Positions 8,587 to 28,974 of a stretch of 32,000 bases of DNA are shown one piece after another (the first letter of the stretch is position 1; the number at the start of each line of letters is the position of its first letter). Under the pieces are notes generated by a model, which had not been told where the DNA came from, made no database searches, and was given only the letters and a program-made list of their open reading frames with translations. Position numbers and translations under genes: made by a program. This stretch comes from Alphaproteobacteria bacterium (GTDB lineage: Bacteria > Pseudomonadota > Alphaproteobacteria > Rs-D84), in assembly GCA_017475605.1 (NCBI GenBank), contig JAFVFD010000005.1:383726-415725 (forward strand), written 5' to 3'.

Positions 8587-8597
8587 TGTTTGCAAAA

Positions 8598-9695: not shown

Positions 9696-9707
9696 TCCTG
9701 TTAATAA

Positions 9708-9737
9708 ATAAAAAATCCGCAAATTGCGGATTCTTTA
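9708..9737. terminator. Bidirectional rho-independent terminator
   Basis: AATCCGC-aaatt-GCGGATT is flanked by an A-run and a T-run, between the convergent genes ending at 9695 (+) and 9738 (-). Confidence 0.7.
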
Positions 9738-10361: not shown

Positions 10362-10393
10362 TTGTGATTCCTGTTTTAGTATTTTATTTGCTT

Positions 10394-10421
10394 AATATAA
10401 TACAAAATATTATTTTGTCAA
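10394..10421 (-). promoter_or_regulatory. Candidate sigma70 promoter for the 207-aa gene
   Basis: On the minus strand: TTGACA (10421-10416), a 16-nt spacer, TATATT (10399-10394), about 30 nt upstream of ATG 10361. Confidence 0.45.
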
Positions 10422-10446
10422 ACAAAATAAGAAAAAATAATAAGCA

Positions 10447-11112
10447 TTATGCGCGGGTGAAACTGTCGCGGATAAATTGGGCAATTGTTGCGTCCGCAAC
10501 GGTGCCGTCCAAGATTATGGTTGCCCAAGTTGCCTTGTTCATGTGGTATGCGGGGTAAAAACCGCGCTTTTTTAATAATTTTTCTGTCTGGGTGGAATCG
10601 ATTTTAATGTTGATAATATCAACGGTTTCAGTCGGTTTGGCACGTGGGTTTAATTTATTCAGTGGAATATTCGCAATTAACGCAAACCATTTGCGATTAT
10701 CGGTGCGGCGAAAAACAGCAAATGATGGGTATTTTTCCCATAAAAATTCGGGGCCAACATTAAATTCGTTAAAAATAAATGCGGCGGCATGGCGGGCGGC
10801 ATCGGATGCAAAATGTTGATTTATTGCGCAATTGTCGCGTATGTCAGTTAATATTCCGATATATCTTTCGCGTATATCGGCGGCATATCCAATATCGTTT
10901 TCCATGCGAAAGTTTGTATATTCCGCATCAATAGATTTATCAATAATTGTGCCTGATATCTTATTTCGTGAATATTCAATGATAACCCGAAAATTGCCAC
11001 GCGACATATCAACCGAATATACTAGTTTTTTACCGTCCCGAACGAAGCCGTATTTTTCCAGTCGCGCCGGCACAATCAAATAATTCGAAAAAACATCGGT
11101 TTCAATCGACAT
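10447..11112 (-). CDS. MmcQ/YjbR-family protein (C-terminal domain) with an unknown N-terminal domain
   Basis: The C-terminal half reads KYPSFAVFRRTDNRKWFALIANIP...GFYPAYHMNKATWATIILDGTV, which matches the YjbR/MmcQ pattern (..KWFA.., ..HMNK..W..v.LDG..). Confidence 0.7.
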   Translation of the reverse strand: MSIETDVFSNYLIVPARLEKYGFVRDGKKLVYSVDMSRGNFRVIIEYSRNKISGTIIDKSIDAEYTNFRMENDIGYAADIRERYIGILTDIRDNCAINQHFASDAARHAAAFIFNEFNVGPEFLWEKYPSFAVFRRTDNRKWFALIANIPLNKLNPRAKPTETVDIINIKIDSTQTEKLLKKRGFYPAYHMNKATWATIILDGTVADATIAQFIRDSFTRA

Positions 11113-11119
11113 AGATACA

Positions 11120-11128
11120 ATTATATCA
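11120..11128 (-). promoter_or_regulatory. Extended -10 element TGATATAAT, 7 nt upstream of the MmcQ-like ATG
   Basis: The minus strand reads TGATATAAT-tgtatct-ATG(11112). No SD is present. Confidence 0.35.
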
Positions 11129-11156
11129 AAAAATAAAACTACGACAAGCGTAGTTT
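11129..11156 (-). terminator. Rho-independent terminator downstream of tRNA-Val
   Basis: The minus strand reads AAACTACG-cttgt-CGTAGTTT followed by TATTTTTTGA. Confidence 0.6.
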
Positions 11157-11161
11157 ATTCG

Positions 11162-11238
11162 TGGTGGGTGTTAAGAGACTTGAACTCCTGACCCTCTGCG
11201 TGTAAAGCAGATGCTCTAGCCAACTGAGCTAAACACCC
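11162..11238 (-). tRNA. tRNA-Val (anticodon UAC), CCA encoded
   Basis: The reverse complement is GGGTGTTTAGCTCAGTTGGCTAGAGCATCTGCTTTACACGCAGAGGGTCAGGAGTTCAAGTCTCTTAACACCCACCA. It folds as a cloverleaf: 7-bp acceptor stem, GCTC/GAGC D stem, TCTGC/GCAGA anticodon stem with loop TT-TAC-AC, and a TTCAAGT T loop. Confidence 0.95.
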
Positions 11239-11296
11239 ATGTAACCAAGTACAGTGCGCTTATCTTAAATCATTTTTTTTGCGCTGTCCAGTTTTT

Positions 11297-11734
11297 TTAT
11301 TTGTGTTCGGTATCCATGACGGCGGTAAATGTGGCCTCGGCAACCTTCTTGCCGGAAACCATCGCGATTCCATGAAACTTATAAAGGCGCATTTTTGTCA
11401 TTACCAGTTCAACATGTAATTCCAATGTATCGCCAGGCATTACCATATGGGAAAACTTGATACGTTCCATTGTGGTGAAATAGCCCAATGTTTTGCCATC
11501 GTCCATGTGCAGATGCTTTAATGCCAAAAAGCACGCGGTCTGGGCCAGTGCCTCGATTTGTAAAACACCGGGCATGATTGGCTTGCCCGGGAAATGCCCC
11601 GCGCACCAAAATTCGTCATCGCGGACATATTTAATGCCGACCGCGCTGGTTTCTGTAAATTCGCGGATTTCGTCCACCATGCGCATATTGCCACGATGTG
11701 GAATTACCGCTTCGATTCCCTTGGCATCTATCAT
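11297..11734 (-). CDS. fabZ: 3-hydroxyacyl-ACP dehydratase FabZ
   Basis: The product contains [19 protein letters not shown], the hotdog-fold active-site motif. An ATGA overlap joins it to the lpxD stop. Confidence 0.95.
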
Positions 11735-12789
11735 TTTTTGCCCGTTGTTTTTTTATAATTATTCTTGGCCCACGCATAAAGACGCAGGTATTCCGTTCCA
11801 GATGATGCGGGGTATCCCAGTTGCCGATCGCCGTCTGGAACATTACGCAATACACCCGATTGTGCACCAATTTCGGCATCGTTGCCAATATGAATGCCGT
11901 TTGCCACACCAACATGGCCGCCCAATAATGCGCGGTCGCCAACAACCGTTCCGCCGGCCTGACCCACACCCGCCGCCAAGAAACATTCAGACCCCACAAC
12001 GACACCATGCGCAATCTGGACCAGGTTATCAATTTTTGTTCCATCGCCAATTGTTGTGTCGGTCATCGCACCACGATCAATACATGTGTTCGCACCAACC
12101 GATACGCGATTTCCAATCACAACACGACCAACATGCGGGATGAATACATTGTGGCCGTCTTGACGGGTATAGCCAAATCCGTCTTTGCCGATAACGGCAT
12201 TTGGGTTAATAACACAGTCCGCACCAATGGTCGCATTTTCAATGTGTGCACCACTTTTAATAATTGTTCCGCGGCCAATTGTTACATTACGACCAATAAA
12301 TACATTTGGGTAAATCTTGACATCGCTTTCAATTACCGCGCCGCGTTCTATTGTGGCAAATTGTCCAACATACACAGTGCTTTTTTTACGGAAAAATACA
12401 CCGCGGTCGATATGTGCATCGTGGCTTATACCAAAACGTGGTTTTTCGCGGTATATTTCGCCTAATATTTTAACGATATATCCGCGTGGCGTGTCGGTAA
12501 TAAGTAATGTGCGACCCGCAGGTGCGTGTTCGGCCATTTCAGGCTGTACCAAAATCACCGATGCACGTGTGTTTTCCAATACAGATATAGGCAATATTTT
12601 AAATGCTGCGCTGTTCTGTTCGGTTGAATAGAATGCCAATTGTCCAGGCTTTGCATCCGCAATAGGTGCAACACCACGAATAATTGTGTTTTTGTCGCCA
12701 CGCAATTCAAGCCCGAATTTCGCGGCAATTTCACCCGCGGTCATTTTTGTTGCCGCCGGTGCTAATAAAGATCTAATTATATTTAACAT
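11731..12789 (-). CDS. lpxD: UDP-3-O-acylglucosamine N-acyltransferase LpxD
   Basis: The N-terminal domain ([14 protein letters not shown]...AKPGQLAF) is followed by many hexapeptide (left-handed beta-helix) repeats. The lpxD-fabZ order is conserved. An alternative start is M16 (ATG 12744). Confidence 0.93.
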
Positions 12790-13634: not shown

Positions 13635-14312
13635 TTATCGCACCGGTGAAATACGAATTTCAACACGACGATTGGTAAGGCGGCCTATGTCGTCCTGGGC
13701 GGCAATGGGACGTGCCGCGCCACGTCCAACAATGAAAAGTCGTTGGGGAATAATACCATGTTGGGCAAAATAAACACCGGTGCGCATCGCCATATCGTTC
13801 GACAATGCCGCCGCCGCCCGCGAATCACGCGTTGCATCGGTATAGCCCGCAATTTCAATAAATGTCGCATCGTATTTATTAAGTAATTTAGAAATTGTTT
13901 TTAGTGTGTCTGCACCATCGGCGGAAATATCCGCAACACTCATTTCCATTATCGCACCACGAACCAAGATGATAACGACATCTGTGCCGGCGCGTTGGAC
14001 GGAAATGCCAGGCTTGCGCAACGCGTCATACAGTGCAAATTCAAGGTCGGACATATATGCCAATGCCAACGCATTATCATCGCCATATTCCAATTTTGCG
14101 GCATGTTCCGATTGTGCAACCAGTTTTCCGCCCGCCCCAAGATATACTGGCTTTTTTGCGATGCGTGTTGTTTCGGTCATATCGGTTAAACTTGCCCCAC
14201 GCAGATATGTTGGCCATGTATTGCGCGCCGGACTGTGATATGTTGCGCATCCAAATAATGTGCAACAAATTAAACCATAAAAAAGTGTTTTTATATTTTT
14301 CAATTTATTCAA
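13635..14312 (-). CDS. OmpA_C-domain lipoprotein (peptidoglycan-binding), TTG start
   Basis: The start MNKLKNIKTLFYGLICCTLFGC carries a lipobox (LFGC). The C-terminal part (IAGYTDATRD...MAMRTGVYFAQHGI...GRGAARPIA...NRRVEIRI) is an OmpA/MotB-type domain. The gene overlaps the pilin stop by 8 nt. Confidence 0.8.
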   Translation of the reverse strand: MNKLKNIKTLFYGLICCTLFGCATYHSPARNTWPTYLRGASLTDMTETTRIAKKPVYLGAGGKLVAQSEHAAKLEYGDDNALALAYMSDLEFALYDALRKPGISVQRAGTDVVIILVRGAIMEMSVADISADGADTLKTISKLLNKYDATFIEIAGYTDATRDSRAAAALSNDMAMRTGVYFAQHGIIPQRLFIVGRGAARPIAAQDDIGRLTNRRVEIRISPVR

Positions 14313-14763
14313 CTACGAATGAAACCTGGTTGGTTTTGGTTGAAAAGCAATTAGATGCACCGGTGGCTTCCTGGCCGTTTACAAGCACTGTTGTTGCCCA
14401 GGGCTGTTTTTTGATGGAAAAATATTCACATTCGCCAGATGTTAACCCAATAAGGTTGATTGTAAATGCCTTTTCATCATACGTTGGTGATATGGACCAA
14501 TCATCATTCCCAATTGGTGCGCGCGACGATGCCAGTGCGCCCGCCTTGATTAAATAATCAATTGAAACACCGGCATATGATCCGCGTGCGCCAGTCAATA
14601 TTTTTACATTTTTTACAATGCGTTCCAGTTCATGTGATGCCAGTGTGCGTATTTGGCTTTCGCGAAGTTGTCCATATAATTGAACCGCCGCAACCGCCAT
14701 AACGGCACCAATGGCCAACACACCGATTATTTCAATTAATGAACGTCCAGATTCTTGTTTCAT
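14305..14763 (-). CDS. Type IV pilin-like protein (PilA-like, 152 aa)
   Basis: It has a class III signal, MKQESG|RSLIEIIGVLAIGAVMAVAAVQLY, with Gly at -1 and Glu at +5. A C-terminal Cys pair (GECEYF...SNCF) resembles the disulfide loop of type IVa pilins. GGGGGGA lies upstream of ATG 14763, 25 nt after the dnaX stop. Confidence 0.8.
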   Translation of the reverse strand: MKQESGRSLIEIIGVLAIGAVMAVAAVQLYGQLRESQIRTLASHELERIVKNVKILTGARGSYAGVSIDYLIKAGALASSRAPIGNDDWSISPTYDEKAFTINLIGLTSGECEYFSIKKQPWATTVLVNGQEATGASNCFSTKTNQVSFVVE

Positions 14764-16406: not shown

Positions 16407-16703
16407 TTATTTAAGGTTTTCGATAAAGTCCGGTAATGGTATTTCTTCTTCTTCGGAAGATTCCGCCACATCCGCCGGCACATCAGGGATTTTTTCATTC
16501 GCCCCGCGTGAAGAATCGATTTTTTCTTGTTCGGCATTAACAATACGGCCATAGTGTTCCGCCGCCTGGAGCAAGCGTTCGCGTTCGATTTCATCAGATG
16601 TCTGACGCGCCTGGTCGATAAGTTGTTTTCTTTTCTGACGCCATTTATGACAGCGTTGAATCATTTGCCCAACATTAGACGTTTGATTTTTTTTGTTTTG
16701 CAT
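16407..16703 (-). CDS. DUF4167-like small protein (alphaproteobacterial)
   Basis: NQTSNVGQMIQRCHKW..LIDQARQTSDEIERERLLQAAEHYGRIVNA parallels the DUF4167 pattern (..KY..LARDA..GDRV.AENYLQHAEHYYRI). The tail is acidic. I preferred this frame over the overlapping frame 16343-16594. Confidence 0.6.
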   Translation of the reverse strand: MQNKKNQTSNVGQMIQRCHKWRQKRKQLIDQARQTSDEIERERLLQAAEHYGRIVNAEQEKIDSSRGANEKIPDVPADVAESSEEEEIPLPDFIENLK

Positions 16704-16794: not shown

Positions 16795-16823
16795 TTGCAA
16801 TATTTTTTTTCAATTGCTATTCT
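16795..16823 (+). promoter_or_regulatory. Candidate promoter of the pilin-like operon
   Basis: TTGCAA (16795-16800), a 17-nt spacer, TATTCT (16818-16823). The SD GGGGGGA (16834-16840) and the TTG start at 16847 follow. Confidence 0.35.
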
Positions 16824-16846
16824 GATTGTCGTAGGGGGGATATCTT

Positions 16847-18205
16847 TTGCGAAACAGTCGTGGAAACTTTTTATTACAGGCATTGCTTGCGCTGACACTG
16901 TTGTTCGCATTTATCCCGTTTATTGCGATAAAATTGCTGGGGCGTGAAAACGATGCGCTTATGTATGCCACGACGCGCCAAATAGATAATGCCACAACCG
17001 CGGCGCGAATATATATTCGTGAAAATGTAAATCGTTTGCCGTATGAGCATACTGTAATTTCAGGGGATGCTTTTTCAGATACACTTGAACCTTATGGTTT
17101 GCCATTGGGTTTTGTGCCTAAGACTGCGCTGGGCCAGGATATATCATTGGTAATTGATAAAAGCGCAGAATCTGTGTCCGCGTATCTTGATTTGCGTGGT
17201 GGTGATTTAAGCAGAGTAAAACGCGCGGAACTGGTGCGCCGTATCGGGTACTTTGCGAACGATGCGGGCGATGGGGGTGTACATGTTGGAATTGCGCTGG
17301 ATAATACATATTCCGATGTTGTTCGTCGCAACGAAATAAATGTTGATGCGAATGCGTTTTTAGTTGATTTAGATATGGGTGGTTTTTCATTTACTAATGC
17401 CGACAATGTGTCGCTGCGGCGTGGCGCGTTTGATGGCGCGGAAATAGGCTCGCTTACTATCAATGGTTTGGAATCTGGTCGAAAAATAAAAAACACGATA
17501 TCGGTAATGGTTGCAGATAAAACAATATTTCAAACAAATCGTGGTGAAAGTGCGTTATCCTTGACACGTGGTTCACTTATTGTGGGCAGTTTGAACGGTA
17601 AAACGGTCGCGGCATATGGGGACACTGGTAATATAACAACGAACAACGCATCGGTTTATGATTTTTCTATGACTGCCGGACGCACCGGTTTTAGTGGCCC
17701 GCCGAATTGGAATATTCGTGGTAATGTTGTTACGACTAAAATCAATTTTAGTGTAGAACGTTTGGATATTAATTCGTTCATTAACGCATCGCGTGGCCAG
17801 GATGTTTTTATCAATTCTGATGAATTAGAATACAGCAGCGCAAGTGGCATAGATACTGACATAATCTATGCATCAAATATAACATTACGCGACCAGACAT
17901 CAGACGCATTGTCGCGTGGTGGTTCGGGGGCGGTGGTGTTGGACGTACGGCCCGCCGGAACATCGTTGTTGCCCGATATGTATGTTACAACAATTGATAA
18001 TGGTGTTTTTGAAATCTTGGCACGACCATCGGACAGTGATTCAAATACCGTTGATTGTAAATCAATAATATCGTCATTAAAGGGTGTGTATAATCAGCAT
18101 TCAATGGCACAATATATAATTTGTCAGTATGTTTATTGGCAACGACTGGAAAAAAGAATAAATATAAAACAATGTTTGTTGGCGGGGAAAAGTGGCTGTA
18201 TTTAA
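16847..18205 (+). CDS. Giant pilin-like protein P1 (452 aa; class III signal with Gln at +5)
   Basis: The TTG start follows GGGGGGA. The N-terminus is MRNSRG|NFLLQALLALTLLFAFIPFIA. Other features are the LEPYGLPLGF patch, the junction motif VDLDMGGFSFTNADNV, a beta-helix-like Gly/Asn/Thr/Val-rich C-terminal half, and 4 Cys in the last 55 residues. Confidence 0.8.
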   Translation: MRNSRGNFLLQALLALTLLFAFIPFIAIKLLGRENDALMYATTRQIDNATTAARIYIRENVNRLPYEHTVISGDAFSDTLEPYGLPLGFVPKTALGQDISLVIDKSAESVSAYLDLRGGDLSRVKRAELVRRIGYFANDAGDGGVHVGIALDNTYSDVVRRNEINVDANAFLVDLDMGGFSFTNADNVSLRRGAFDGAEIGSLTINGLESGRKIKNTISVMVADKTIFQTNRGESALSLTRGSLIVGSLNGKTVAAYGDTGNITTNNASVYDFSMTAGRTGFSGPPNWNIRGNVVTTKINFSVERLDINSFINASRGQDVFINSDELEYSSASGIDTDIIYASNITLRDQTSDALSRGGSGAVVLDVRPAGTSLLPDMYVTTIDNGVFEILARPSDSDSNTVDCKSIISSLKGVYNQHSMAQYIICQYVYWQRLEKRINIKQCLLAGKSGCI

Positions 18206-19403
18206 AACAAAAATCTTTGACGGTATAAATCGCGGTGCCAGTGTATTGGAAGTGATATTGTCAATGGCCATTGTTGCCATGGCGGCACCACTGGTGTATA
18301 CGCAAATATCCGAAACCAACAGAAATATTCATGATATGGCAACCGCGCGGAATATAACAGATGTGCGTGGTGTGGTTTTGAACTTTATTCGTCTGAACCA
18401 GGACACGTGGCCGGATACGGCGCAAATTCGTTTGACGGACGAAGAATTGGAAATTATTGCCGATGGTGCGCATGCGGGATTTGTTGATAAATATACGATG
18501 CATGGTACAACAATCACAGATGTATATTTGGCATTTGATATACATGAACCAGTATTACATACCGCAAACATTGCGCATCATATTGGTGATGACGCGGCGG
18601 TTGTTGGACCGGATGGTGTGGCGCAGGGTCGTACATGGGCGGTAAGTGCGCCTGACTTTAATATTGGTGATTTGATATATCGTATATCGCGTGATGTGTT
18701 TGGCGAAGATAAAACTAAATACCTTCATCGTGGAACATCGGGCGATGACGAACTAAATGTTATGTATCGTGATTTTAATATGGGTGGAAAAACGGTATAT
18801 GATGTTGGTGGAATTGATGCAAATACAATGCGCGTGGACGACGTAACCGCAACATTTATTAAAACAGAAGATTTATCTGCGAACACGATATATTTTGCCA
18901 GTGGCGCAAACATGATGGGTGGTAATGTAACAATGGGTTCGTTGCGTGTAACCGGCGATATTACAGGTTTTAGAAATATTTATGCAGATAATTTAAACGG
19001 TGCGGGTTATACAACATCTGGTCGTGTGATTGCGGATCGTGCGGTGGTTACAAATTCGGTAAATGTGGCGCGTGATTTAGTATTGAAATCTGATACCGCG
19101 CGGACGATAAGTGGGTTTACCGGAATCAAGGCAAGTTCGGTTTACACCGCATATTTAACGACAGACGAAATTATGTTTTACGAAGATTTTGGGTTAACGG
19201 TATCTGGTGAACTTATGATGTCGTCAAATCCGCCGATTAAATTTGGCGCATGGAGTTTTCCATCAACCACACCGCCAACATTTACACGATTGACACTGGC
19301 GCGCGCGCCTATTCCGGCCGCACCTAAAAAATCTGAATTCGGTGCAATTTTAACAAGTGGTTGGCAATCATATGTACCAGAATCTGTTGTGGGGGGATTA
19401 TGA
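18192..19403 (+). CDS. Giant pilin-like protein P2 (403 aa)
   Basis: The GTG start follows GGGGA and overlaps P1 by 14 nt. The N-terminus is MAVFKTKIFDGINRG|ASVLEVILSMAIVAMAAP (Glu at +5). The junction motif is YLHRGTSGDDELNVMYRDFNMGGKTVYDVGGI. The C-terminal half looks repetitive and beta-helix-like, and the protein contains no Cys. Confidence 0.8.
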   Translation: MAVFKTKIFDGINRGASVLEVILSMAIVAMAAPLVYTQISETNRNIHDMATARNITDVRGVVLNFIRLNQDTWPDTAQIRLTDEELEIIADGAHAGFVDKYTMHGTTITDVYLAFDIHEPVLHTANIAHHIGDDAAVVGPDGVAQGRTWAVSAPDFNIGDLIYRISRDVFGEDKTKYLHRGTSGDDELNVMYRDFNMGGKTVYDVGGIDANTMRVDDVTATFIKTEDLSANTIYFASGANMMGGNVTMGSLRVTGDITGFRNIYADNLNGAGYTTSGRVIADRAVVTNSVNVARDLVLKSDTARTISGFTGIKASSVYTAYLTTDEIMFYEDFGLTVSGELMMSSNPPIKFGAWSFPSTTPPTFTRLTLARAPIPAAPKKSEFGAILTSGWQSYVPESVVGGL

Positions 19404-20716
19404 TTAACAAAACACGCATCTTTTCAAACAGGTTGTCGCAACGCGGGGGAATGTTGGTTGAATTGCTTATGAGTGTGGCAATCGTATCTGTGGTGTTGCC
19501 GTTCCTTTTTCGGTATCAGCAAGATTCTATTATTCGTGCCGAAAATATTGCTGTTGCGCGGCAAATGCAGGATGTTCAAACCGTACTTGAACGATACATA
19601 GTAATAAATCGTGATCAATTATTGGTTGTTGCGGGTAAATCAATTATTCGTGTTGATGTTAAAGATTTGATTGAATACGGTTTACCAGAAACGATTGTGG
19701 AAAAATATGGCGATAAATACCAGTTGCGAATTTTAAAATCGTCTGATGCCACCGGCCAGGCAACACTTCAGGGTGTTGTTGTATTAAGTGATGATTCTAT
19801 TTCCCCAATGCGCACACGCGAAATAGTTTCAACCGGCGGTGCCGATATGGGCTTTGTCGAAGGTACGCACGCGTACGGAACGTTTGGCGCATGGCATGCG
19901 GATACAATTGAATTGGGGGTAAATGCGACAAATGGCATTGTTGGAACAACGGCGGTAAATCGTGATAATGCGCTGTATTTTTGGCGGTTGCCGTCTGACG
20001 ATTCAGCGGACGCAACGATGTTAAGTGCGCTTAACCTGGGGGGGCACGACATCACAAATGTTTCACGATTTGATGTTTATTCGGCGGGTTTTGATGAAAT
20101 ATTAGAATCGATAAATATTGCGGCAAACCGCGTTGTGTTTTCTAATCGTACAACGATAGACAGTGCGTTTGAAACAAAAACTGCGACATGTTCTGGTACT
20201 TTATCGTCTGATGCCAAGGGGCTAGAGATTACAGGTGCGTTAACCCTGACGGATATGGGCAAGTTTTCTAATTTCAATACATCAAATCTGTGGGCGACTA
20301 ATTTGACATTGTCGGGTATTTCAATTGCCGACACGACCAAGGTTACGGTTTTGGATGTTAACCAAAGTCTTGATATGACCGGTGGTCGTATTACTTCGTT
20401 ATTTACGACGGTAAGTTTTGCGGGGTCCATCACACCGCGTTTGGTTGTTCGTGATAAAATTGCGGATTCGGTGGACAAGAACTTTTATTGGGACCTTAAA
20501 AACCGCGTTGCGAATTTTTCAGATGCTTCGTTGGCGGAACTTAGTCGTATGGCACCATTGGTTGCCGCCCGCGAAGGCGACAATAACACCGTTTCAACCC
20601 AGGTGTTCGGTGCCGTATCCGCCAACAGAAATGCCACCGCCGCAGATTTTATGAATGCTATAAACGAAATTCAAAATCGGGTGCGTGCGAAATATCGCTT
20701 GTTGAATTTGGAATAA
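19400..20716 (+). CDS. Giant pilin-like protein P3 (438 aa)
   Basis: An ATGA overlap joins it to the P2 stop, with GGGGGGA upstream. The N-terminus is MINKTRIFSNRLSQRG|GMLVELLMSVAIVSVVLP (Glu at +5). It has the LIEYGLPETI patch and the junction motif YFWRLPSDDSADATMLSALNLGGHDITNV. The C-terminal half differs from P1 and P2. Confidence 0.8.
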   Translation: MINKTRIFSNRLSQRGGMLVELLMSVAIVSVVLPFLFRYQQDSIIRAENIAVARQMQDVQTVLERYIVINRDQLLVVAGKSIIRVDVKDLIEYGLPETIVEKYGDKYQLRILKSSDATGQATLQGVVVLSDDSISPMRTREIVSTGGADMGFVEGTHAYGTFGAWHADTIELGVNATNGIVGTTAVNRDNALYFWRLPSDDSADATMLSALNLGGHDITNVSRFDVYSAGFDEILESINIAANRVVFSNRTTIDSAFETKTATCSGTLSSDAKGLEITGALTLTDMGKFSNFNTSNLWATNLTLSGISIADTTKVTVLDVNQSLDMTGGRITSLFTTVSFAGSITPRLVVRDKIADSVDKNFYWDLKNRVANFSDASLAELSRMAPLVAAREGDNNTVSTQVFGAVSANRNATAADFMNAINEIQNRVRAKYRLLNLE

Positions 20717-20736: not shown

Positions 20737-21246
20737 ATGAAAATAAAATGTGATTTTTGCAAGACAGAATATTCAATTGAACGTGCGCCATCTGCGCCGG
20801 TGAAATGCGCGGTGTGTGGGCATGTGTGGAATGTGGTTGTGCCGTCGCGTCGTGGGGCATGGATGTTGTTTATCGCATCTGTGTGCGCTTTGTTATCGGC
20901 AATAGTATTTGTAACCGCCGTTGTTGTAAAGTCTAAGATAGAGGCCGCCAACCGTGCACCCATTGTTGCGGAATTGTCGGAAATCAAGGTTGTAACCGAC
21001 GATGACGGCATCCCGCACTTTGCCGTTAGTGGTGCGATTATAAATCAGTCAACGGAAATATACGGTGTGCCTGATTTGGTGGTGGTGTCGCGCGATGCGA
21101 CGGGCCATGAAATTGCCCGGCAAAAGTTTATGCCGTCCGCCACATTAGTAGAAGGGGGCGCATCGGTCGGGTTTAATCATGTGTTAAGTACACCAACAGA
21201 TGGTGTGAAAAAAATAACTGTGGAATTACAAATGGGGGATGAATAA
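20737..21246 (+). CDS. Zinc-ribbon (MJ0042-type) membrane protein with a DUF3426-like C-terminal domain
   Basis: The N-terminus MKIKCDFCKTEYSIERAPSAPVKCAVCGHVW is a CxxC...CxxC ribbon. One TM helix (WMLFIASVCALLSAIVFVTAVVV) is followed by a beta-rich domain (FAVSGAIINQSTEIYGVPDLVVVSRDATGHEIARQKF..). Confidence 0.75.
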   Translation: MKIKCDFCKTEYSIERAPSAPVKCAVCGHVWNVVVPSRRGAWMLFIASVCALLSAIVFVTAVVVKSKIEAANRAPIVAELSEIKVVTDDDGIPHFAVSGAIINQSTEIYGVPDLVVVSRDATGHEIARQKFMPSATLVEGGASVGFNHVLSTPTDGVKKITVELQMGDE

Positions 21247-21716
21247 TGAAAAGATTTCTTGTCGCATTTGGAATGTTGTTATGTGTGTTTTCGGCAAATG
21301 CCGCGGAACCAACACCGCCACCGGCACGCCGGATTAGTGTTTTTTCCACAAGTACAGATTGGCAGGCGATAACGGGTTTATTGCTTAATGAATATCGTGG
21401 AATATTTAAACCAGATGCCAAGGTTGTTGGACCCAAGGGGGTGGTATTATATTACCTGGATGGGTTCCCATGCTATGGTCTGGGGGATGGTGTGCGTGTT
21501 TGGTTGGGGGCAAATAACAAACATTCTGGCGAATTGCGAATTGCGTGTGTATATGCGCCGGAAACGATAAACTTTTCATGGCGAAATGCGGCCCGCGATG
21601 CGGATGATGCAACGGGAACAGGTTTGTTGACATGCCCTGTTTCGGCGGACGGTCGTGATTTGACGATTGATTTGGCAAAATGCACATTTGGTAAAGATTG
21701 GTCTGAATATAAATAG
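21246..21716 (+). CDS. Small secreted protein (156 aa, 4 Cys), unknown function
   Basis: A TAATG overlap joins it to the upstream stop. The signal peptide is MKRFLVAFGMLLCVFSANA|AEP. I recognise no family. Confidence 0.65.
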   Translation: MKRFLVAFGMLLCVFSANAAEPTPPPARRISVFSTSTDWQAITGLLLNEYRGIFKPDAKVVGPKGVVLYYLDGFPCYGLGDGVRVWLGANNKHSGELRIACVYAPETINFSWRNAARDADDATGTGLLTCPVSADGRDLTIDLAKCTFGKDWSEYK

Positions 21717-22739: not shown

Positions 22740-22765
22740 AAAATAACAATAATGGAGTGAGACAA

Positions 22766-25700
22766 ATGCATTTCTTCAAAAAAACAATTGGGTTAATGGC
22801 TGTTTTGTGCGTGATTCCGGGGGCGTTTGCTGCGACTGCGCGTCCATCTGTGATTACGACGGCGGGGTCGCGTATGCCGACAATGGTGGTTAAAACATCG
22901 ACCGCCGCGACATCGTCTGGCACAACAACATCGTCTGCATTGTTGGCGGATGCCGAATGTATTGATGCGTACACCGAATGTATCAAAGGCGCAGATGCTT
23001 GTGGCGAAAATTTTGAAGAATGCACAACGAATGTCTTGTTCCACGGTAAAATGCCAGGTTGTTTAAGCACATTGGCACAATGTTCATCGGCCGGTGTAAA
23101 CAGTTTGTTTGGCACATCAAACATTGCCGCTTTGTCCAATGTTGCGACCAAAAACACTTATGGCGAGGTTACAGAATACACATATCCAACCGCAGGCAGT
23201 GTTTTAGGTCAAATGATAACTGCGGCGGCCATTTCGAACCAGTATGACACATCAACCTGTGTTCGTCGTGTAACATCTTGCCTTAAAAAAGATACCGTTT
23301 GTGGAAATGATTTCGAACTTTGCACCACGAACAAAGAGTTCCGTAAACAGCGCGTGTTGTGTGATTCCACATTGGCGCGTTGCCAGGCCGAAGGCGTGAT
23401 TGAATTGTTGGGTTCGTCAAATCGTACCGCGGTACCAACCGCAACAAGTCGTATTGGCGAAATGATTAGCGAAGGTGCGGCACTGGCGGCTGTAAATGCG
23501 GTTTCCACCTGTTACAAGGTTATTGACCAGTGTTTCTTGGGGGCATGTGCGGAAAATCCGTATAAGTGCTTTGAAAACAGCAGCACATCATTGGCATCTA
23601 TCGTAGATGCGATTAACAGTGGTTCTGAAATCACGACTGATATGATTGATACTGTTATTAATGGTTCATCAATTCATGGCTATATCAAAAATGCTTGTTT
23701 AGACACCGTTGGTTCGAACAAATATTGCTATGCGACATTCCTGGGTAATGGCCAAATGCCAACAAATGCCCAGTTGCGCGACGAAGATAACCAGGAAGAA
23801 ATCTTTGACGAAGCATATGCGTCCCGTATGAATGCCGGTATGAAGGCTAAAATTGCGGACTTGATTGATAAATTTGACACCCGCGCAAAGAGCAAATGTA
23901 CCGAAACAATCAAATCGTGTGCGATGCGTGTTTGTGGTGGTGGCATTGGTTCCGCATGCTATGCCGCGGTATTTGGTGGCGCAGATAAAAGCATCAATGG
24001 TTCCAACACATACGAAGAAATCAAAACAGGTTGTGCGCCAATCGTAAATACTGATACATATTGTAAATATGCGGCGGCGAATCCAAATTCGACCGGTACA
24101 TATTCATATACATATATAAATCGCGATGCGTTTGATGTATTGTTCCCTGAATACAGCGGCGGAACCGAAATTGATTCTATCGGTGTGGTGGCAAGCCTTA
24201 ATTCCGCGTTGGCAACAAATTACAGCGATGCGGCTATTGCCCAGTTAAAGAAACAATGTCAGTCGTTGGCGACAAGTTGTGTTAAAACAATGTGCGGAAC
24301 TGATTATACCAGTTGTTATCGTAACCGTACCGATGTCGCGTCCAGTTTGACTAATTCCGGCAACAGCGCATTTGATGCATCTATGAACAAGGTTGGCGGT
24401 GTGCTTGATTACACAATCGTATTGGGGTTGTGCCTGGATACAGTTAAAAACGCATCTGTTTGTGAAGAACACCTTGCTATCGAAGGTAACAAAATCAAAA
24501 TGGCGGGCGCGGGGACATCATCGTGGGGTGGTGCATCATCTGTCCGCGAAGGCTGGATTGATGCCGGTGCCGCAACAAAAGTAACGGGCGAAGTTCGCCA
24601 GGTTGCACTTACCGATGCATACGGCAACGAATTGTGCAGAACACAAGACGGTGAAGAATGCATATGTAATACAGTAAGCGAAAGTGGCAAGGTTTGCGAT
24701 ATCAAGGAAATGATAGACTATACCACATTCGTTCAGACCCAGGCGGCAAATTCATTGTTCAAAGATTTAATCTATGACATTGAAAAAGAAGCCCAGGCGA
24801 AATACAACGCGAAATTGACCGCTGAACAAAATATGTGCTTGGCGGCGAACGCGGGTGGTATTGTTGGCAATCGTGATAACGGTTCTACATTTATGTGGGT
24901 TAAATTAAAGGGCAATCGTATTCCAAAAGATTATACGACAAATGGCCTTAAACAGACCGCATTTGCGACCAGTAATGAATTGTATGGTTCGTTCTGTCGT
25001 GTACGCGTAACATTACAGTCTGACGATAAAAAGATTCAGGAAGCAATTTCCGGCAAATCGTGGAATACGGCATATTATGCGGTTGGCGATTCGTTCACAT
25101 GCGGTTCTTGGATACCGGAATCTGCTTTGGATGATTTGGCAAATGCTGCGGCGGACGATGCAACATCAAACATGCGTGCCGACCAGGAACGTGTCCGCAC
25201 ATGGACAACGATTTTGGGCGCATTGGGTGGCGGTGCCGGCGGATTGGCATTGGGCGAAAACATCCGTACAGGTAAAACATTGGGTGGTTTGACGGGCCTG
25301 TCGCCAGATGTCCAGAAAAACAAAGCAAAAAGCAGCAAGACCAGTTGTATCAGGGCGGCGAATGAAGTCGCATACCCAACTGCAACAGCGCAGAATGTGT
25401 ATGACTATTCTGGAACTGTGGCAAGTGATGCACGTGATTTGAAGGCCGCTTTGGACAGTGAATTGACATTGTTGAACGGTCAACGTACGGTGTTGTTAAC
25501 TGCTATTAACACAACGTGCGCAGATGGCGATAAAACTTGCCTTAGCAATAAAGAGAACGCGATTGCAAAAGCGAAGTCCGATGTACAAACAACCGTTGCA
25601 AGTATTAAAGCGGGTTGCGATAAAGCAACTGAAGACGATGTTGTAGCAAGCAAGGACAAGACACGCGGTTGGATTTCGGCGTTAAGCACGATTACATTGG

Positions 25701-25882
25701 GAACCGCCGGTGCGTTGTTGGTAAATCGCGCAACCCAGGATATCCAAGATTCCGAATTGTCGGCTGCACAAAAGGCGGCATACGAAGATTGGATGAACAA
25801 GGTTGGTCGCCACATCACATGCTATATCGGTGGGGACGAAGCCGGTAATTATGGCGATGTGATTACAACGGCACTGGAATAA
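22766..25882 (+). CDS. Large secreted Cys-rich protein (1038 aa from ATG 22766), unknown family
   Basis: The signal peptide is MHFFKKTIGLMAVLCVIPGAFA|ATARPS. By my count the mature protein has about 42 Cys. It contains two exact-spacing six-Cys modules, further C-x6-C-x4-C-x6/7-C units, and two C-terminal Trp + Gly-zipper hydrophobic segments. A strong terminator follows. Confidence 0.85.
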   Translation: MHFFKKTIGLMAVLCVIPGAFAATARPSVITTAGSRMPTMVVKTSTAATSSGTTTSSALLADAECIDAYTECIKGADACGENFEECTTNVLFHGKMPGCLSTLAQCSSAGVNSLFGTSNIAALSNVATKNTYGEVTEYTYPTAGSVLGQMITAAAISNQYDTSTCVRRVTSCLKKDTVCGNDFELCTTNKEFRKQRVLCDSTLARCQAEGVIELLGSSNRTAVPTATSRIGEMISEGAALAAVNAVSTCYKVIDQCFLGACAENPYKCFENSSTSLASIVDAINSGSEITTDMIDTVINGSSIHGYIKNACLDTVGSNKYCYATFLGNGQMPTNAQLRDEDNQEEIFDEAYASRMNAGMKAKIADLIDKFDTRAKSKCTETIKSCAMRVCGGGIGSACYAAVFGGADKSINGSNTYEEIKTGCAPIVNTDTYCKYAAANPNSTGTYSYTYINRDAFDVLFPEYSGGTEIDSIGVVASLNSALATNYSDAAIAQLKKQCQSLATSCVKTMCGTDYTSCYRNRTDVASSLTNSGNSAFDASMNKVGGVLDYTIVLGLCLDTVKNASVCEEHLAIEGNKIKMAGAGTSSWGGASSVREGWIDAGAATKVTGEVRQVALTDAYGNELCRTQDGEECICNTVSESGKVCDIKEMIDYTTFVQTQAANSLFKDLIYDIEKEAQAKYNAKLTAEQNMCLAANAGGIVGNRDNGSTFMWVKLKGNRIPKDYTTNGLKQTAFATSNELYGSFCRVRVTLQSDDKKIQEAISGKSWNTAYYAVGDSFTCGSWIPESALDDLANAAADDATSNMRADQERVRTWTTILGALGGGAGGLALGENIRTGKTLGGLTGLSPDVQKNKAKSSKTSCIRAANEVAYPTATAQNVYDYSGTVASDARDLKAALDSELTLLNGQRTVLLTAINTTCADGDKTCLSNKENAIAKAKSDVQTTVASIKAGCDKATEDDVVASKDKTRGWISALSTITLGTAGALLVNRATQDIQDSELSAAQKAAYEDWMNKVGRHITCYIGGDEAGNYGDVITTALE
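22958..23083 (+). repeat. Six-Cys module, copy 1 (C-x6-C-x6-C-x6-C-x12-C-x6-C)
   Basis: The module reads ECIDAYTECIKGADACGENFEECTTNVLFHGKMPGCLSTLAQC. Confidence 0.8.
23258..23383 (+). repeat. Six-Cys module, copy 2 (identical Cys spacing, exactly 100 aa downstream of copy 1)
   Basis: The module reads TCVRRVTSCLKKDTVCGNDFELCTTNKEFRKQRVLCDSTLARC. It shares CG..FE.CTTN and C.STLA.C with copy 1. Confidence 0.8.
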
Positions 25883-25898
25883 TCACAGTCAAACAAAT

Positions 25899-25924
25899 TA
25901 ACCGCCCATTCGGGCGGTTTTTTG
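25899..25924 (+). terminator. Rho-independent terminator
   Basis: The sequence reads ACCGCCC-attc-GGGCGGT-TTTTT, 16 nt after the stop. Confidence 0.8.
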
Positions 25925-26121
25925 TGGGCGCTAGTTTTCTTGAATCTTGTTCCAGAAAACAACAACCTGCCCCACGGGGCAGGTATCGCGCATCAGACAA
26001 TCAAGTCATAAATCTTAAATCAGGAATCACAAATGTAGTCGCGATTAAATCAGCAATATGGTTAAACTCTGTTCTTGCGGGGGTGGGTTTTTTGTGATAA
26101 AATTAAAAGCACAGAGAGAAT

Positions 26122-28053
26122 ATGAAATATTTTGCCAGATTTTTGTTGGCTGTGTTATCTGTCGTGCCATTTGGCGCGAATTGTGCCAATATTCCGACAA
26201 CGCGCGGGAATAATTTAACCGCATATAACGGCGCGTCGGGAACCACAAATAATAATAATTGGAACGCGTTAATGAATGTGCGTTCGGGTGCGGACAGTGC
26301 CGATATGCCGGTGGCGGACTTTGGTAATTGTAATGCAATTGTTTTGCGCTGTGCGCAACCAAAATGCGCGAACGGTGGTTGCGTGGACGTGGATGTAACA
26401 TCGACAATTGTTGCGGGTTGTGTGCGTTCTAATGATGCGTGTGCAAAATATGGCGATGATTTGGTTGCGTATATTTCCGCGCAATTGGTGGCCCAGAGTA
26501 CCGCTAAATCAAACGCGGCGCAATCGGCCGCGGCAAATGCCGCCGCCGCACAAAGTGCACAGCAAATGGCCGCTATGCAACAACAGATGCAACAGATGCA
26601 ATCGCAAATGGCGGCACAAAATGCCGAAACCGTTGCCCAATTACAAGATGCGTTAGAGGAACAAAAACAATTAACCGCCCAGGCTATTGCCGATGCAACC
26701 GCGGCACGCACAACACAGGCTGCTGTCAATGTGGCTGCGGCGACTGCTGATACCGAATCAAATACGACACAAACGACGGCCCAGACCGCCGCGGCCGGTG
26801 CGTTGACAACGGCGCAACAATTGGCGGCACAAAGTGGTGTTTCAGCGGATATTTTGGCGCGCGAACAGATTTCTGGGCAAATTATGTCGGCAATCGAAAA
26901 CGCACAAACCCAGTTAAATAAACTTAAAGAGACAATGACCAATGTTTTTGATTACGCGGGTTGTGATTCGCGTGGCGATAATTGTACCGGCCCAAAGCGC
27001 GTTAAAACATTTAAACAAAAGGCTATGGATTTCTTTGAACCATACGACAATGTTTTGGACGATGTTTACGATGCCCTTATCCTTGCTCAATCGGTCGGCG
27101 TTGATATTACCGATATCTATATGATGTTAAACGATTCGTGTAATGTATGGGGCAAATATATGTGTAACCAGAATCAAGATTTGCGCTATACGACACAAAA
27201 TTGTCAAAAAGATGCATCGGGGGTATATCGTTCGGTTTCTGGTAAATTCGTGTTAGGTGATGCAAATTGTACAGTTGGAAAAATTATACCGGTGTCTGAT
27301 GGTGGGTGTCAGCCGTTGGGCCTTATTAACAATGACGAAGAAGTACGTTATAACTGGTTAAACCCGGATACCGGGGACGAAACTAATATCAAGGTTGGCT
27401 GTATGTCGGATATGTTGGACACTTCCGCATTGTTCCGCAATCGTAAAAAAGGTGCCAGTATTGATATCGAAACACTTAAACGCATAATCGAACAAGATGC
27501 ACCAAGTGTTTATGGCGCGCGCTTTGGTGGCCTGGGTACAACAACCGCGCCAGATCCAGACGGAATTAAGTATTGCAAGGTAAATCCGGAAACTTTTATC
27601 GAATTGGAAAAAATAGTGTCATTAAAAACATTGCCACAAAATGTATGTGTGACGGACGCATTTTTGAAATCAGAAGCAGAAAATAAAGAAGGTTTGGGGG
27701 GAAACTCTAGTGTAGATAATAATAAAAAAACAGCGTGCTTACAAACACAGGGTGCGGTGTATTCAGATACATTGAATGTGTGCTACTGTTTGAATCAAGA
27801 AATGCATGATAAAAACTTTTTTACCTGTGATCCTGCCGCAGGCGCAGAGCAAAAAAGAAAGGACGAATTAAAGGCAAAGTGCATGTATTGGGCATCGGTA
27901 AAAAGTAGCAGGGTTTTGACAAGAAATTATAAATCATACGATGAATGTATTTGTGAGGAAAGCGACGAAACAACAACATATTATACCAATGGTAACATGT
28001 GCGAATGTGCTGATGGGGAAAAGTTTAATACGGTAAATCTTAAATGCGAATAA
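26122..28053 (+). CDS. Secreted Cys-rich protein with a central Ala/Gln-rich region (643 aa), unknown family
   Basis: The signal peptide is MKYFARFLLAVLSVVPFGA. An N-terminal NCNAIVLRCAQPKCANGGC unit has the same C-x6-C-x4-C style as the 1038-aa protein. An Ala/Gln/Thr low-complexity or coiled-coil region of about 150 aa follows. The C-terminal half carries about 20 Cys, including CYC, CIC and CEC pairs. Confidence 0.85.
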   Translation: MKYFARFLLAVLSVVPFGANCANIPTTRGNNLTAYNGASGTTNNNNWNALMNVRSGADSADMPVADFGNCNAIVLRCAQPKCANGGCVDVDVTSTIVAGCVRSNDACAKYGDDLVAYISAQLVAQSTAKSNAAQSAAANAAAAQSAQQMAAMQQQMQQMQSQMAAQNAETVAQLQDALEEQKQLTAQAIADATAARTTQAAVNVAAATADTESNTTQTTAQTAAAGALTTAQQLAAQSGVSADILAREQISGQIMSAIENAQTQLNKLKETMTNVFDYAGCDSRGDNCTGPKRVKTFKQKAMDFFEPYDNVLDDVYDALILAQSVGVDITDIYMMLNDSCNVWGKYMCNQNQDLRYTTQNCQKDASGVYRSVSGKFVLGDANCTVGKIIPVSDGGCQPLGLINNDEEVRYNWLNPDTGDETNIKVGCMSDMLDTSALFRNRKKGASIDIETLKRIIEQDAPSVYGARFGGLGTTTAPDPDGIKYCKVNPETFIELEKIVSLKTLPQNVCVTDAFLKSEAENKEGLGGNSSVDNNKKTACLQTQGAVYSDTLNVCYCLNQEMHDKNFFTCDPAAGAEQKRKDELKAKCMYWASVKSSRVLTRNYKSYDECICEESDETTTYYTNGNMCECADGEKFNTVNLKCE

Positions 28054-28841: not shown

Positions 28842-28844
28842 AAT

Positions 28845-28966: not shown

Positions 28967-28974
28967 ATTTTTGC

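Follow-up and report, generated by a model that had tools for sequence, protein, structure and literature searches.

PilV, named by PGAP 'shufflon system plasmid conjugative transfer pilus tip adhesin PilV', is a large minor pilin and the tip adhesin of IncI-type type IVb thin pili. In the IncI1 plasmid R64 it is encoded by a single gene whose 3' segments can invert; its relatives include PilV of the Salmonella pil operon, and shufflon-less forms occur in Erwinia amylovora pEA60 and Pantoea pJZ29-03, where a fixed pilV has no adjacent recombinase. TcpB (Vibrio cholerae TCP) and CofB (ETEC CFA/III) are also large minor pilins, in which additional C-terminal domains follow the pilin domain; they probably occupy the tip, where they would prime assembly and take part in binding, and are reported as trimers. 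Minor pilins also form caps, such as GspH/I/J/K in type II secretion, FimU-PilVWX in type IVa pili and TadE/F/G in Tad pili; GspH-K comprise several minor pilins, one of which is without Glu5, and apical subunits such as GspK lack Glu at +5.

Candidatus Enterousia (Alphaproteobacteria, order Rs-D84) is a gut lineage with genomes below 1 Mb that is probably dependent on a partner (PMC12306168). The 32,000-nucleotide stretch of its DNA analysed here (the window) contains three overlapping genes (the trio) related to PilV:

P1: 16847-18205, + strand, 452 aa, TTG start; PilV-like pilin paralog
P2: 18192-19403, + strand, 403 aa, GTG start; PilV-like pilin paralog
P3: 19400-20716, + strand, 438 aa, ATG start; PilV-like pilin paralog, the closest of the trio to PilV

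Organization and Conservation of the P1-P2-P3 Unit

The overlap of P1 with P2 is 14 nt and that of P2 with P3 the ATGA at 19400-19403, and each gene is preceded by a G-rich Shine-Dalgarno sequence (AGGGGGGA at 16833-16840 for P1, GGCGGGGAA at 18181-18189 for P2 and GGGGGGA at 19390-19396 for P3); the three genes form one translationally coupled chromosomal unit in Candidatus Enterousia. The N-termini are of the prepilin type, MRNSRG/NFLLQ in P1, ..INRG/ASVLE in P2 and ..SQRG/GMLVE in P3 (the slash marks the end of the leader), with leaders of 6, 15 and 16 residues, respectively, that of P2 containing a conserved K-x-K/R-I-F. Among the orthologs, Gly at -1 never varies in P2 and P3 and is conserved in at least 90% of P1 sequences; the residue at +5 is an invariant Glu in P3, Glu in at least 90% of P2 and Gln in at least 90% of P1 sequences, while all three families have an invariant Pro at +18. 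At the opposite end, P1 has four conserved Cys near its C-terminus, P2 a Pro-rich tail, and P3 a conserved helical C-terminus. The open reading frames, both overlaps, the Shine-Dalgarno sequences and the N-termini are all as described in a first-pass annotation of this DNA.

At the cluster level, homologs of conserved length number about 900-1000 for each protein, and a relative is encoded in 128 species. The block P1-P2-P3-ZitP-like-o156-rluD has the same order in 80/80 species-level genomes and in the sister clade; because of this fixed order and of the length-conserved homologs, the pattern is not due to chance. The trio lies in a housekeeping context (dnaX, rluD, lpxD, skp and lpt genes) of unremarkable G+C content, in which its members are the fastest-evolving proteins, with 27-41% identity to the sister clade versus ~72% for dnaX, rluD and lpxD. 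The sister-clade proteins, of 531, 455 and 653 aa, have other or larger C-terminal domains. The layout of constant N-terminal and variable C-terminal regions proposed earlier holds, in fact, between clades but not within Enterousia, where the N- and C-terminal halves are equally conserved.

Paralogy and Relationship to PilV

All-against-all profile alignment (hhalign) confirms that P1, P2 and P3 are paralogs, as had been supposed: the P2 and P3 families align with a probability of 97.9% (E 5.5e-13, 289 columns), P1 and P3 with an E of 1.7e-8, and the third comparison within the trio gives an E of 1.1e-5. With five plasmid PilV proteins as the reference, all three align with the N-terminal constant region of PilV at E 6e-12 to 1e-7; in particular, the probability is 97.5% for P3 (E 6.3e-12, 281 columns), 95.6% for P1 (E 1.3e-8, 193 columns) and 94.1% for P2 (E 1.3e-7, 205 columns). 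The kinship to PilV (Shufflon_N, PF04917) claimed in the first-pass annotation is upheld by these profiles, but the Pfam check proposed for it failed, since P1-P3 of the window match neither N_methyl nor Shufflon_N, even at E up to 1; TadE (PF07811) is likewise absent among the Pfam matches of the window at E up to 1. The P3 ortholog P0113 (57% identical) passes the Shufflon_N gathering score (33.9 versus 27.5 bits), and a tblastn search of plasmids with a Shufflon_N-passing P3 ortholog matched 2227 records, the 20 listed being without exception pilV or an unannotated equivalent. A P3 HMM retrieved 308 representatives at E up to 1e-3, and 8 of the 58 distant matches scanned were Shufflon_N proteins (best E 4e-69); this retrieval of genuine PilV supports the kinship of P3. 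In the reverse direction, Erwinia PilV detects P3 by tblastn in about 43-45 loci (best E 5.7e-13). P1, P2 and P3 are three ancient PilV-family paralogs, remote homologs of the N-terminal constant region.

The homology covers the N-terminal 200-280 residues. There the prepilin signal of the trio has the register of that of PilV (RG/, with Glu or Gln at +5 and with Pro at +18), and a G(Y)LPxGF patch is shared, as is a YxxR...DMxGxxxxN motif; the YGLP patch and the [YV]xxR...[DN][LM]GG motif noticed previously in the trio are indeed real, being aligned columns in the three families and in PilV. The motif had been taken for the constant/variable boundary of the shufflon, but it is located inside the PilV constant region (about residues 199-230 of the Erwinia protein), and the homology of the trio stops before the end of this region, at profile position 267 of 324. 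PilV and the trio are also similar in size, about 400-450 aa, with a conserved N-domain followed by differing C-terminal parts. In contrast, the identity is only ~23-26%, the window proteins miss the Pfam model, and the trio consists of three separate full-length genes instead of one with invertible segments; moreover, these are chromosomal, in a reduced-genome alphaproteobacterium, outside a pilL-pilV operon and not beside tra genes. A fixed pilV nevertheless has precedent in the recombinase-less genes of pEA60 and pJZ29-03, whose N-terminus RGNMLLQ closely resembles the RGNFLLQ of P1 with Gln at +5 in both, although there pilV is present as a single copy that closes a full type IVb pil operon of a conjugative plasmid.

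In the AF2 models of P3, a long N-terminal helix of roughly 55-60 residues, spanning 10-69 in the model of the N-domain and 14-69 in that of the full-length protein, precedes a beta sheet that extends to about residue 190. The pLDDT is 72 for the N-domain and ~30 over residues 228-348 of the C-terminal half, and the beta-helix-like fold suggested for the C-terminal halves was not confirmed. Foldseek against the PDB gave no significant pilin match, and PDB sequences searched with the P3-family profile gave only marginal matches, to pilin N-terminal helices, with no detectable similarity to TcpB or CofB. The trimers of these two proteins make a set of three paralogs suggestive, although both are homotrimers of one gene. 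With GspH/I/J/K, FimU-PilVWX and TadE/F/G the trio shares the presence of several pilin-like genes in one operon, near or apart from the major pilin, with one member devoid of Glu5; however, there is no family-level match, only one of the P2 N-terminus to XpsI/GspI (E 0.009), and the trio proteins are two to four times larger than pseudopilins of the GspH-K and FimU/PilVWX type.

Neighboring Genes

The genes flanking the trio that are considered here are the following:

OmpA-domain lipoprotein: 13635-14312, - strand; OmpA PF00691, E 2.7e-12
Small pilin gene: 14305-14763, - strand; 152 aa from the conserved start MKQESG/RSLIE
orf98: 16407-16703, - strand; charged conserved 98-aa protein, divergent from P1
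ZitP-like gene: 20737-21246, + strand; 169 aa, with an N-terminal CxxC...CxxC zinc ribbon, one TM helix and a periplasmic DUF3426
o156: 21246-21716, + strand; 156 aa, secreted, with a signal peptide and conserved Cys

The small pilin gene, located 2 kb upstream of the trio, is the fourth pilin-like gene of the window and was not mentioned in the first-pass annotation of the trio. Its product combines a leader of 6 residues and Glu at +5 with a C-terminal loop flanked by two conserved Cys, and 70 orthologs are in its alignment. It matches N_methyl with an E of 0.007 (below the cut-off), PilS_N with 0.042 and PRK10557, a prepilin-peptidase-dependent protein, with 4.6e-4; aligned with five PilS proteins by hhalign, it gives an E of 5.6e-4 and a probability of 30% over the full length, with both Cys aligned. 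Its tblastn matches to plasmids are weak, 13 of the 15 listed being annotated 'type 4 pilus major pilin', and a member of its cluster bears the JGI name 'Tfp pilus assembly protein PilE'. On these sequence features, the protein is a candidate for the major subunit of the filament. The OmpA-domain lipoprotein gene and the small pilin gene are always linked, the start of the former sharing 8 nt with the 3' end of the latter; the block ompA2-smallpilin-dnaX is found in 69 loci and is intact through a rearrangement in one of them (L024). As for orf98, it is conserved in 74 loci and in the sister clade; the trio promoter should lie between orf98 and P1 (16704-16846), a region in which a promoter scan gave chance-level signals only.

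The ZitP-like gene, which accompanies the trio in every locus, starts 20 nt past the stop codon of P3. Its product matches Zn_ribbon_4 (E 4.5e-5) and TIGR02098 (23.1 bits versus a cut-off of 20.9); among 12 orthologs scanned, Zn_ribbon_4 was present in all and DUF3426 in six (best E 2.7e-6). The three-part architecture of zinc ribbon, TM helix and DUF3426 is that of Caulobacter crescentus ZitP, which is longer (311 aa versus 169). In Caulobacter, the periplasmic DUF3426 domain is required for Cpa pilus biogenesis (PMC5182063), and ZitP serves this Tad/Cpa (type IVc) pilus through CpaM; neither CpaM nor Cpa genes were seen at the trio locus. The linkage is only suggestive, since ZitP orthologs are spread over numerous clades of Alphaproteobacteria and also act on PopZ, a second role that involves neither pili nor DUF3426 (PMC5182063). 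The start of o156 overlaps the ZitP-like stop, and o156 is present in 80/80 loci and in the sister clade.

Assembly and Recombination Genes

The window lacks a recombinase, a GspE/PilB-type assembly ATPase, a platform protein, a secretin and a prepilin peptidase, as had been stated, and contains neither a PilN/O/P homolog nor a polytopic membrane ORF. The same assembly set (peptidase, ATPase, platform, secretin, PilN/O/P) was not found within 10 kb of the trio in ~95 related loci, searched by tblastn with pEA60 (R64-type) proteins only (1.84 Mb in total, E up to 0.01). A shufflon and a recombinase were likewise not found in these loci, and the trio is without sfx-like repeats or Rci, in agreement with the view of three genes fixed in tandem.

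Proposed Function

The explanation that we favor, with a probability of about 0.55, is that these fixed PilV-like minor pilins serve a type IV filament as its tip or adhesin set. Each protein would be cut after the conserved Gly by a prepilin peptidase whose gene lies elsewhere, and the hydrophobic N-terminal helices of P1-P3 would then join a type IV filament made of the small pilin, with P1-P3 at its tip because large minor pilins start assembly. They may form a mixed complex in which P1, being without Glu at +5 like apical subunits such as GspK, would be uppermost; alternatively, P1, P2 and P3 could each make a separate tip. A heterotrimeric tip might be imagined purely by analogy with CofB and TcpB. 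The C-terminal halves, which differ among the three, would serve as exposed binding modules, and tip diversity would derive from three fixed genes rather than from the DNA inversion of one pilV, as in R64. We infer a multi-adhesin tip on a filament whose use and machinery are hypothetical. Its most likely job would be contact with a partner cell or a host surface, considering the genome of less than 1 Mb, the presumed partner dependence and the rapid evolution of the trio, whose members are the best candidates in Candidatus Enterousia for a filament tip gripping a partner cell.

P1-P3 could instead be exapted PilV descendants working outside filaments, whose uncleaved N-terminus serves as a signal anchor for periplasmic or envelope proteins tethered to the inner membrane, as in a polar scaffold with the ZitP-like protein. 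This is rather unlikely, even if it agrees with the assembly genes missing from the loci searched, with the sub-threshold N_methyl and Shufflon_N scores of the window proteins, with the tight linkage of the block to a bitopic ZitP-like membrane protein and with the one genomic survey covering Rs-D84, in which type IV pili are listed for another lineage and not for Rs-D84 (PMC12306168). Strict conservation of Gly at -1, Glu/Gln at +5 and Pro at +18 in two clades argues against a plain anchor, which would not need these residues, whereas cleavage and filament packing require them; a separate small pilin with a classic C-terminal disulfide loop is also retained in so small a genome, and rapid divergence with replacement of the C-terminal domains suits exposed proteins better.

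The same small pilin could build a short periplasmic pseudopilus, type II secretion-like or competence-like, with the trio as its minor-pilin cap, for protein export or DNA uptake and not adhesion. The weak XpsI/GspI match of P2, the NCBI name 'type II secretion system protein' of a P3 ortholog, the 6-residue leader of the small pilin, like that of GspG or PpdD, and the set of several minor pilins with one Glu5-less member, as in GspH-K, point this way, but the specific homology is to PilV and not to GspH/I/J/K, proteins of 400-650 aa with clade-specific Cys-rich C-terminal domains are atypical of pseudopilins, and secretin and GspE/F genes were not found in the window or in the ~95 related loci; we consider such a cap improbable. 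The closest characterized relatives are plasmid PilV and, weakly, PilS, as expected if an IncI-like conjugative element had integrated and left behind its thin-pilus genes, of which the trio would be a decaying remnant. This origin is effectively refuted by the housekeeping context, by the gene order fixed in 80 species and the sister clade and by the absence of tra/trb, rci or integrase genes from the loci searched; the low identity to PilV, the ordinary G+C content, the intact ORFs and their conserved lengths also speak against decay.

Gene Organization and Prepilin Signals

The core of the locus consists of three tandem genes, P1, P2, and P3 (the trio), and the open reading frames (ORFs) that the first-pass annotation had claimed are all present on the + strand:

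16847–18205, + strand: P1, 452 aa, TTG start
18192–19403, + strand: P2, 403 aa, GTG start
19400–20716, + strand: P3, 438 aa, ATG start

As it had also described, the end of P1 overlaps P2 by 14 nt, and P2 shares the tetranucleotide ATGA with the start of P3. The starts are preceded by G-rich ribosome-binding sites (AGGGGGGA for P1, GGCGGGGAA for P2, and GGGGGGA for P3), and the extension of P3 to a TTG codon at 19361 was rejected, finding no support in the orthologs. The trio is labelled "hypothetical protein" in GenBank (MBR2286585-7), as are the products of two nearby genes, one for a small pilin and one ZitP-like, and gut metagenomes contain roughly 900–1000 cluster-level homologs for each of P1, P2, and P3.

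Class III (prepilin) signal peptides combine a short leader of basic character and a Gly at −1 with a hydrophobic stretch of about 20 residues and a Glu at +5. Such signals are recognized in the trio both by reading the sequences and in the family alignments, and they are conserved in a sister clade as well; the N-termini are those reported previously, namely MRNSRG/NFLLQ for P1, INRG/ASVLE for P2, and SQRG/GMLVE for P3, the slash following the Gly at −1. In the family alignments this Gly never varies in P2 or P3 and is conserved in at least 90% of P1, a Pro at +18 is invariant across the three families, and position +5 holds an invariant Glu in P3, a Glu in no fewer than 90% of P2 sequences, and a conserved Gln in P1. 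In the tip subunits of type IV pilins, Gln or another residue is tolerated at +5. Scans with the Pfam and NCBIfam models matched P1–P3 to no family, including the N_methyl signal (PF07963/TIGR02532). Chance ORFs with ordinary Sec signals are ruled out because homology and conservation extend to the family level.

Paralogy and Relationship to the PilV Family

The proposal that the three genes are paralogs holds in all-pairs comparisons by BLASTP and hhalign. Among the single sequences, P2 and P3 are similar over about 320 residues (E 9e-10) and P1 and P3 over the first 114 residues only (E 8e-5), while P1 and P2 have no significant BLASTP similarity; among the family profiles, hhalign relates P3 to P2 (97.9%, E 5.5e-13, 289 columns), P3 to P1 (95.4%, E 1.7e-8, 227 columns), and P2 to P1 (81.7%, E 1.1e-5, 180 columns). 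The common region begins at the signal, takes in a YGLP patch, and reaches the motif YxxR...(D/N)(L/M)GG....N. This motif had been described as a junction followed by the differing C-terminal regions; it is located inside the constant region of PilV, at about residues 199–230, and is not a shufflon junction.

The first-pass annotation had compared the trio to PilV adhesins and had named the lack of an N_methyl or Shufflon_N (PF04917) match as a result against its own reading. Formally, this is what the window proteins returned, P1–P3 being unmatched by either model even at E up to 1. The kinship itself is borne out at the family level. Only one of 23 P3-family members exceeds the Pfam gathering score for Shufflon_N of 27.5 bits: this is P0113, a P3 ortholog with 57% identity, which scores 33.9 bits with residues 51–295 aligned to profile positions 10–267 of 324, and another member, P0112, reaches 24.1 bits. 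A tblastn search of plasmids with P0113 matched 2227 records, and all 20 of those listed are pilV or its unannotated equivalent; reciprocally, PilV of the Erwinia plasmid pEA60, whose pilV gene has no shufflon, finds P3 in about 43–45 loci of Candidatus Enterousia (best E 5.7e-13). Against a profile of five aligned PilV proteins from plasmids, hhalign gave 97.5% for the P3 family (E 6.3e-12, 281 columns), 95.6% for P1 (E 1.3e-8), and 94.1% for P2 (E 1.3e-7). Searching 1.84 billion representative proteins with the P3 HMM returned 308 matches at E up to 1e-3, and Shufflon_N was detected in 8 of the 58 distant matches scanned (best E 4e-69). The signal register is also shared, with RG/NMLLQ and Pro at +18 in Erwinia PilV and RG/NFLLQ and Pro at +18 in P1. 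These comparisons of sequence families make a solid case that P1, P2, and P3 are remote homologs of the N-terminal constant region of PilV.

Other matches of the P3 profile include proteins of 900–1236 aa (P0454–P0510) that share only the N-terminal 220–280 residues, one relative containing a phage tail collar domain, and a further one containing a bactofilin domain. A wider, mostly unannotated superfamily, in which a PilV-like N-domain is combined with varied C-terminal modules, is what this pattern points to. In the conjugative plasmids pEA60 of Erwinia (L001) and pJZ29-03 of Pantoea (L004), pilV lacks an adjacent rci or shufflon and is followed by an acyltransferase gene, and the PilV N-termini (RGNMLLQ and RGGMLLQ, respectively) are strikingly P1-like.

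The full-length AF2 model of P3 has a mean pLDDT of 57.8, with a helix at residues 14–69, strands up to residue 190, an unmodelled stretch at 228–348 (pLDDT ~30), and a helical C-terminus (pLDDT ~70–80). A model of the N-domain from the three-family alignment (pLDDT 72, pTM 0.57) has the same topology, which appears pilin-like in outline, the pilin fold being a long N-terminal alpha helix that packs against an antiparallel beta sheet. Searching PDB sequences with the P3-family and PilV profiles found no solved relative of PilV or of the trio; the only matches were marginal, to the N-terminal helices of Geobacter pilins (E 0.17).

Divergence of the Trio

The constant-N/variable-C layout that had been suggested for these proteins applies between clades but not within Enterousia, where conservation is even along each protein and the C-terminal halves are not hypervariable. 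In the sister clade, recovered from JGI metagenomes, synteny is the same as in the window. Identity to the window is about 72% for dnaX, rluD, and lpxD, and about 65% for orf98, a highly charged 98-aa ORF (16407–16703, − strand) that is divergently transcribed relative to P1 and occurs in 74 of 80 loci. It falls to ~40–45% for the ZitP-like gene, ~38–44% for the small pilin, 30–41% for P3, 30–39% for P2, and 22–30% for P1, with short local matches of 37–46% in the latter. The sister-clade trio encodes 531, 455, and 653 aa (locus L091 at 7034–11956, JGI contig Ga0265298_10000005; also L096–L101); in most of these loci only the N-terminal ~300 residues or fewer of P3 can be aligned, and the protein carries a C-terminal domain of ~150 residues, very rich in Cys (CxxxC, CxC), that is absent from P3 of the window. 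It follows from these identities and from the new domain that the trio evolves faster than the rest of the locus and that its C-terminal modules have been replaced, a behaviour that fits exposed binding proteins.

Genomic Context

The neighbours of the trio are housekeeping genes (nusA, lptF/G, lptD, rlmN, fabZ, lpxD, skp, dnaX, and rluD), and the G+C content is even across the window, at about 0.40–0.49. Four further features belong to the locus:

13635–14312, − strand: ompA2, OmpA-domain lipoprotein gene
14305–14763, − strand: small pilin gene, 152 aa, signal MKQESG/RSLIE, two conserved Cys flanking a C-terminal loop, 70 orthologs
20737–21246, + strand: ZitP-like gene, zinc ribbon, single transmembrane helix, and DUF3426
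21246–21716, + strand: o156, secreted 156-aa protein

The order orf98 (−), P1, P2, P3, ZitP-like gene, o156, rluD is kept in 80 of 80 species loci wherever the contig allows, and a second block, ompA2–small pilin–dnaX, is found in 69 loci; a rearrangement in one locus (L024) shifts both blocks and disrupts neither. The linkage between ompA2 and the small pilin gene is constant, the start of the former overlapping the 3′ end of the latter by 8 nt, and another gene of the OmpA family, with a glycine zipper, is present at 8598–9302. A promoter and terminator scan gave counts at the level of shuffled sequence.

The small pilin is the candidate major subunit. It scores 16.3 bits against N_methyl (cut-off 21.2) and 14.3 bits (E 0.042, cut-off 22) against the Pfam family of the type IVb major pilin PilS, PF08805; hhalign with PilS gives E 5.6e-4 at a probability of only 30%; and in tblastn, at E 0.3–2, 13 of the 15 matches listed are annotated "type 4 pilus major pilin", one match lying in a type IVb cluster. 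The weak links to PilS all point in one direction and hint at a relationship.

The likeness of the 20737–21246 product to Caulobacter ZitP is one of domain architecture: TIGR02098 is matched above its cut-off, the transmembrane helix spans about residues 41–63, and among 12 orthologs scanned Zn_ribbon_4 was detected in all and DUF3426 in six (best E 2.7e-6). Pilus biogenesis in Caulobacter requires the DUF3426 domain of ZitP, which is periplasmic (PMC5182063).

Putative Function and Alternative Readings

The Enterousia chromosome, belonging to a gut alphaproteobacterium with a reduced genome, carries three fixed, coupled, and conserved minor-pilin paralogs of the PilV family, linked to the small pilin gene and to the ZitP-like gene. 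For their function, we favour, at slightly better than even odds (about 0.55), a reading in which the trio proteins would be cut after the Gly and join a type IV filament built of the small pilin, at whose tip they would sit either together in a mixed complex or each as an alternative tip, with P1, bearing Gln at +5, as the putative apical subunit, and would mediate adhesion to a partner or to the host. PilV itself is characterized by a position at the pilus tip and by binding to surface structures of the recipient.

As had been claimed, the window contains neither a recombinase nor a pilus assembly gene. Regarding a shufflon, in which Rci inverts DNA at sfx repeats and so produces alternative C-termini, the window has only chance-level 14–24-mer repeats and none that are sfx-like, and tblastn at E up to 0.01 found no Rci homolog in the window and 98 related loci; since some plasmid pilV genes also lack a shufflon, this element does not define the family. 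Queries with the TcpQ-domain protein of pEA60 and with its PilM, N, O2, P, Q, R, S, T, and U at the same threshold drew no match from 1.84 Mb comprising the window and the 98 loci with 10-kb flanks. In this sequence the trio is thus not embedded in a pil operon of type IVb, which extends from pilL to pilV and includes the PilQ ATPase, the PilR platform, PilN, PilS, and the PilU peptidase, and no prepilin peptidase or filament assembly gene was found in the window or in the 10-kb flanks of the related loci. Among the unannotated window ORFs, a hydropathy scan found no polytopic membrane protein as a peptidase or platform candidate, and relaxed Pfam scans of the ORFs of unknown function returned nothing relevant.

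Three other readings were weighed. The trio could consist of membrane-anchored PilV descendants that work without any filament, which appears unlikely, or could belong to a secretion or uptake pseudopilus, which appears quite unlikely. A mobile-element relic is hardly credible and was rejected on account of the housekeeping context and the invariant synteny. A more elaborate version of the favoured tip reading is speculative and appears unlikely: the Enterousia filament would end in a heterotrimeric tip, formed by three diverged PilV paralogs and capped by P1, that recognizes and grips a partner cell or a host surface and is diversified without a shufflon, and the ZitP-like protein would position the apparatus at a cell pole. 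If so, gene triplication with C-terminal domain swapping would be a second evolutionary route to tip diversity, as opposed to the shufflon.

Host Lineage and Significance

P3 has relatives in 128 species-level genomes; where a genus is given it is Candidatus Enterousia, and the remainder are labelled uncultured (Alpha)proteobacteria from rumen, colon, caecum, and faeces. A survey places Enterousia in the order Rs-D84, with genomes mostly below 1 Mb that lack flagella and have lost the TCA cycle, respiratory chain, and standard transporters, and proposes that these bacteria depend on, and live off, a partner; type IV pili are reported there for a different lineage only, not for Enterousia/Rs-D84 (PMC12306168). 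The literature search found no paper on pili in Enterousia or Rs-D84. Given these losses and the supposed partner dependence, a conserved and fast-evolving putative tip set is a concrete candidate for a contact apparatus. Patescibacteria use type IV pili, and a partner-holding filament in Enterousia would be a parallel.

Minor pilins acting as tip adhesins are an established concept, and the PilV family itself is known; the novelty lies in a triplicated chromosomal form that lacks a shufflon and occurs in Alphaproteobacteria, in the ZitP-like linkage, and in the reduced-genome context. The reach of the family is thereby extended from enterobacterial conjugative plasmids to the chromosome of a widespread uncultured gut lineage, in which the trio would represent a shufflon-free way to carry several tip modules. 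Antibody work, FISH combined with cryo-ET, metaproteomics, and the search for a partner all gain clear targets in the three proteins.

The window is located at the end of a metagenomic contig of 695,807 bp and closes with the 5′ portion of a 16S rRNA gene (31752–32000; Rfam RF00177, 181.6 bits); many related contigs stop a few kb past the locus, where assembly probably breaks at the rRNA operon. A tRNA gene (11165–11238, − strand; Rfam RF00005, 69.4 bits) lies between a YjbR-domain gene and fabZ. At 22757–31202, five signal-peptide proteins in a row (1041, 643, 265, 449, and 278 aa, the 449-aa protein on the − strand), at least three of them Cys-rich, match no Pfam or NCBIfam family; across Enterousia the 1041-aa protein is found in 67 loci, the 643- and 265-aa proteins in 30 each, and the 449-aa protein in 31, and the run may represent a second lineage-specific set of surface proteins.
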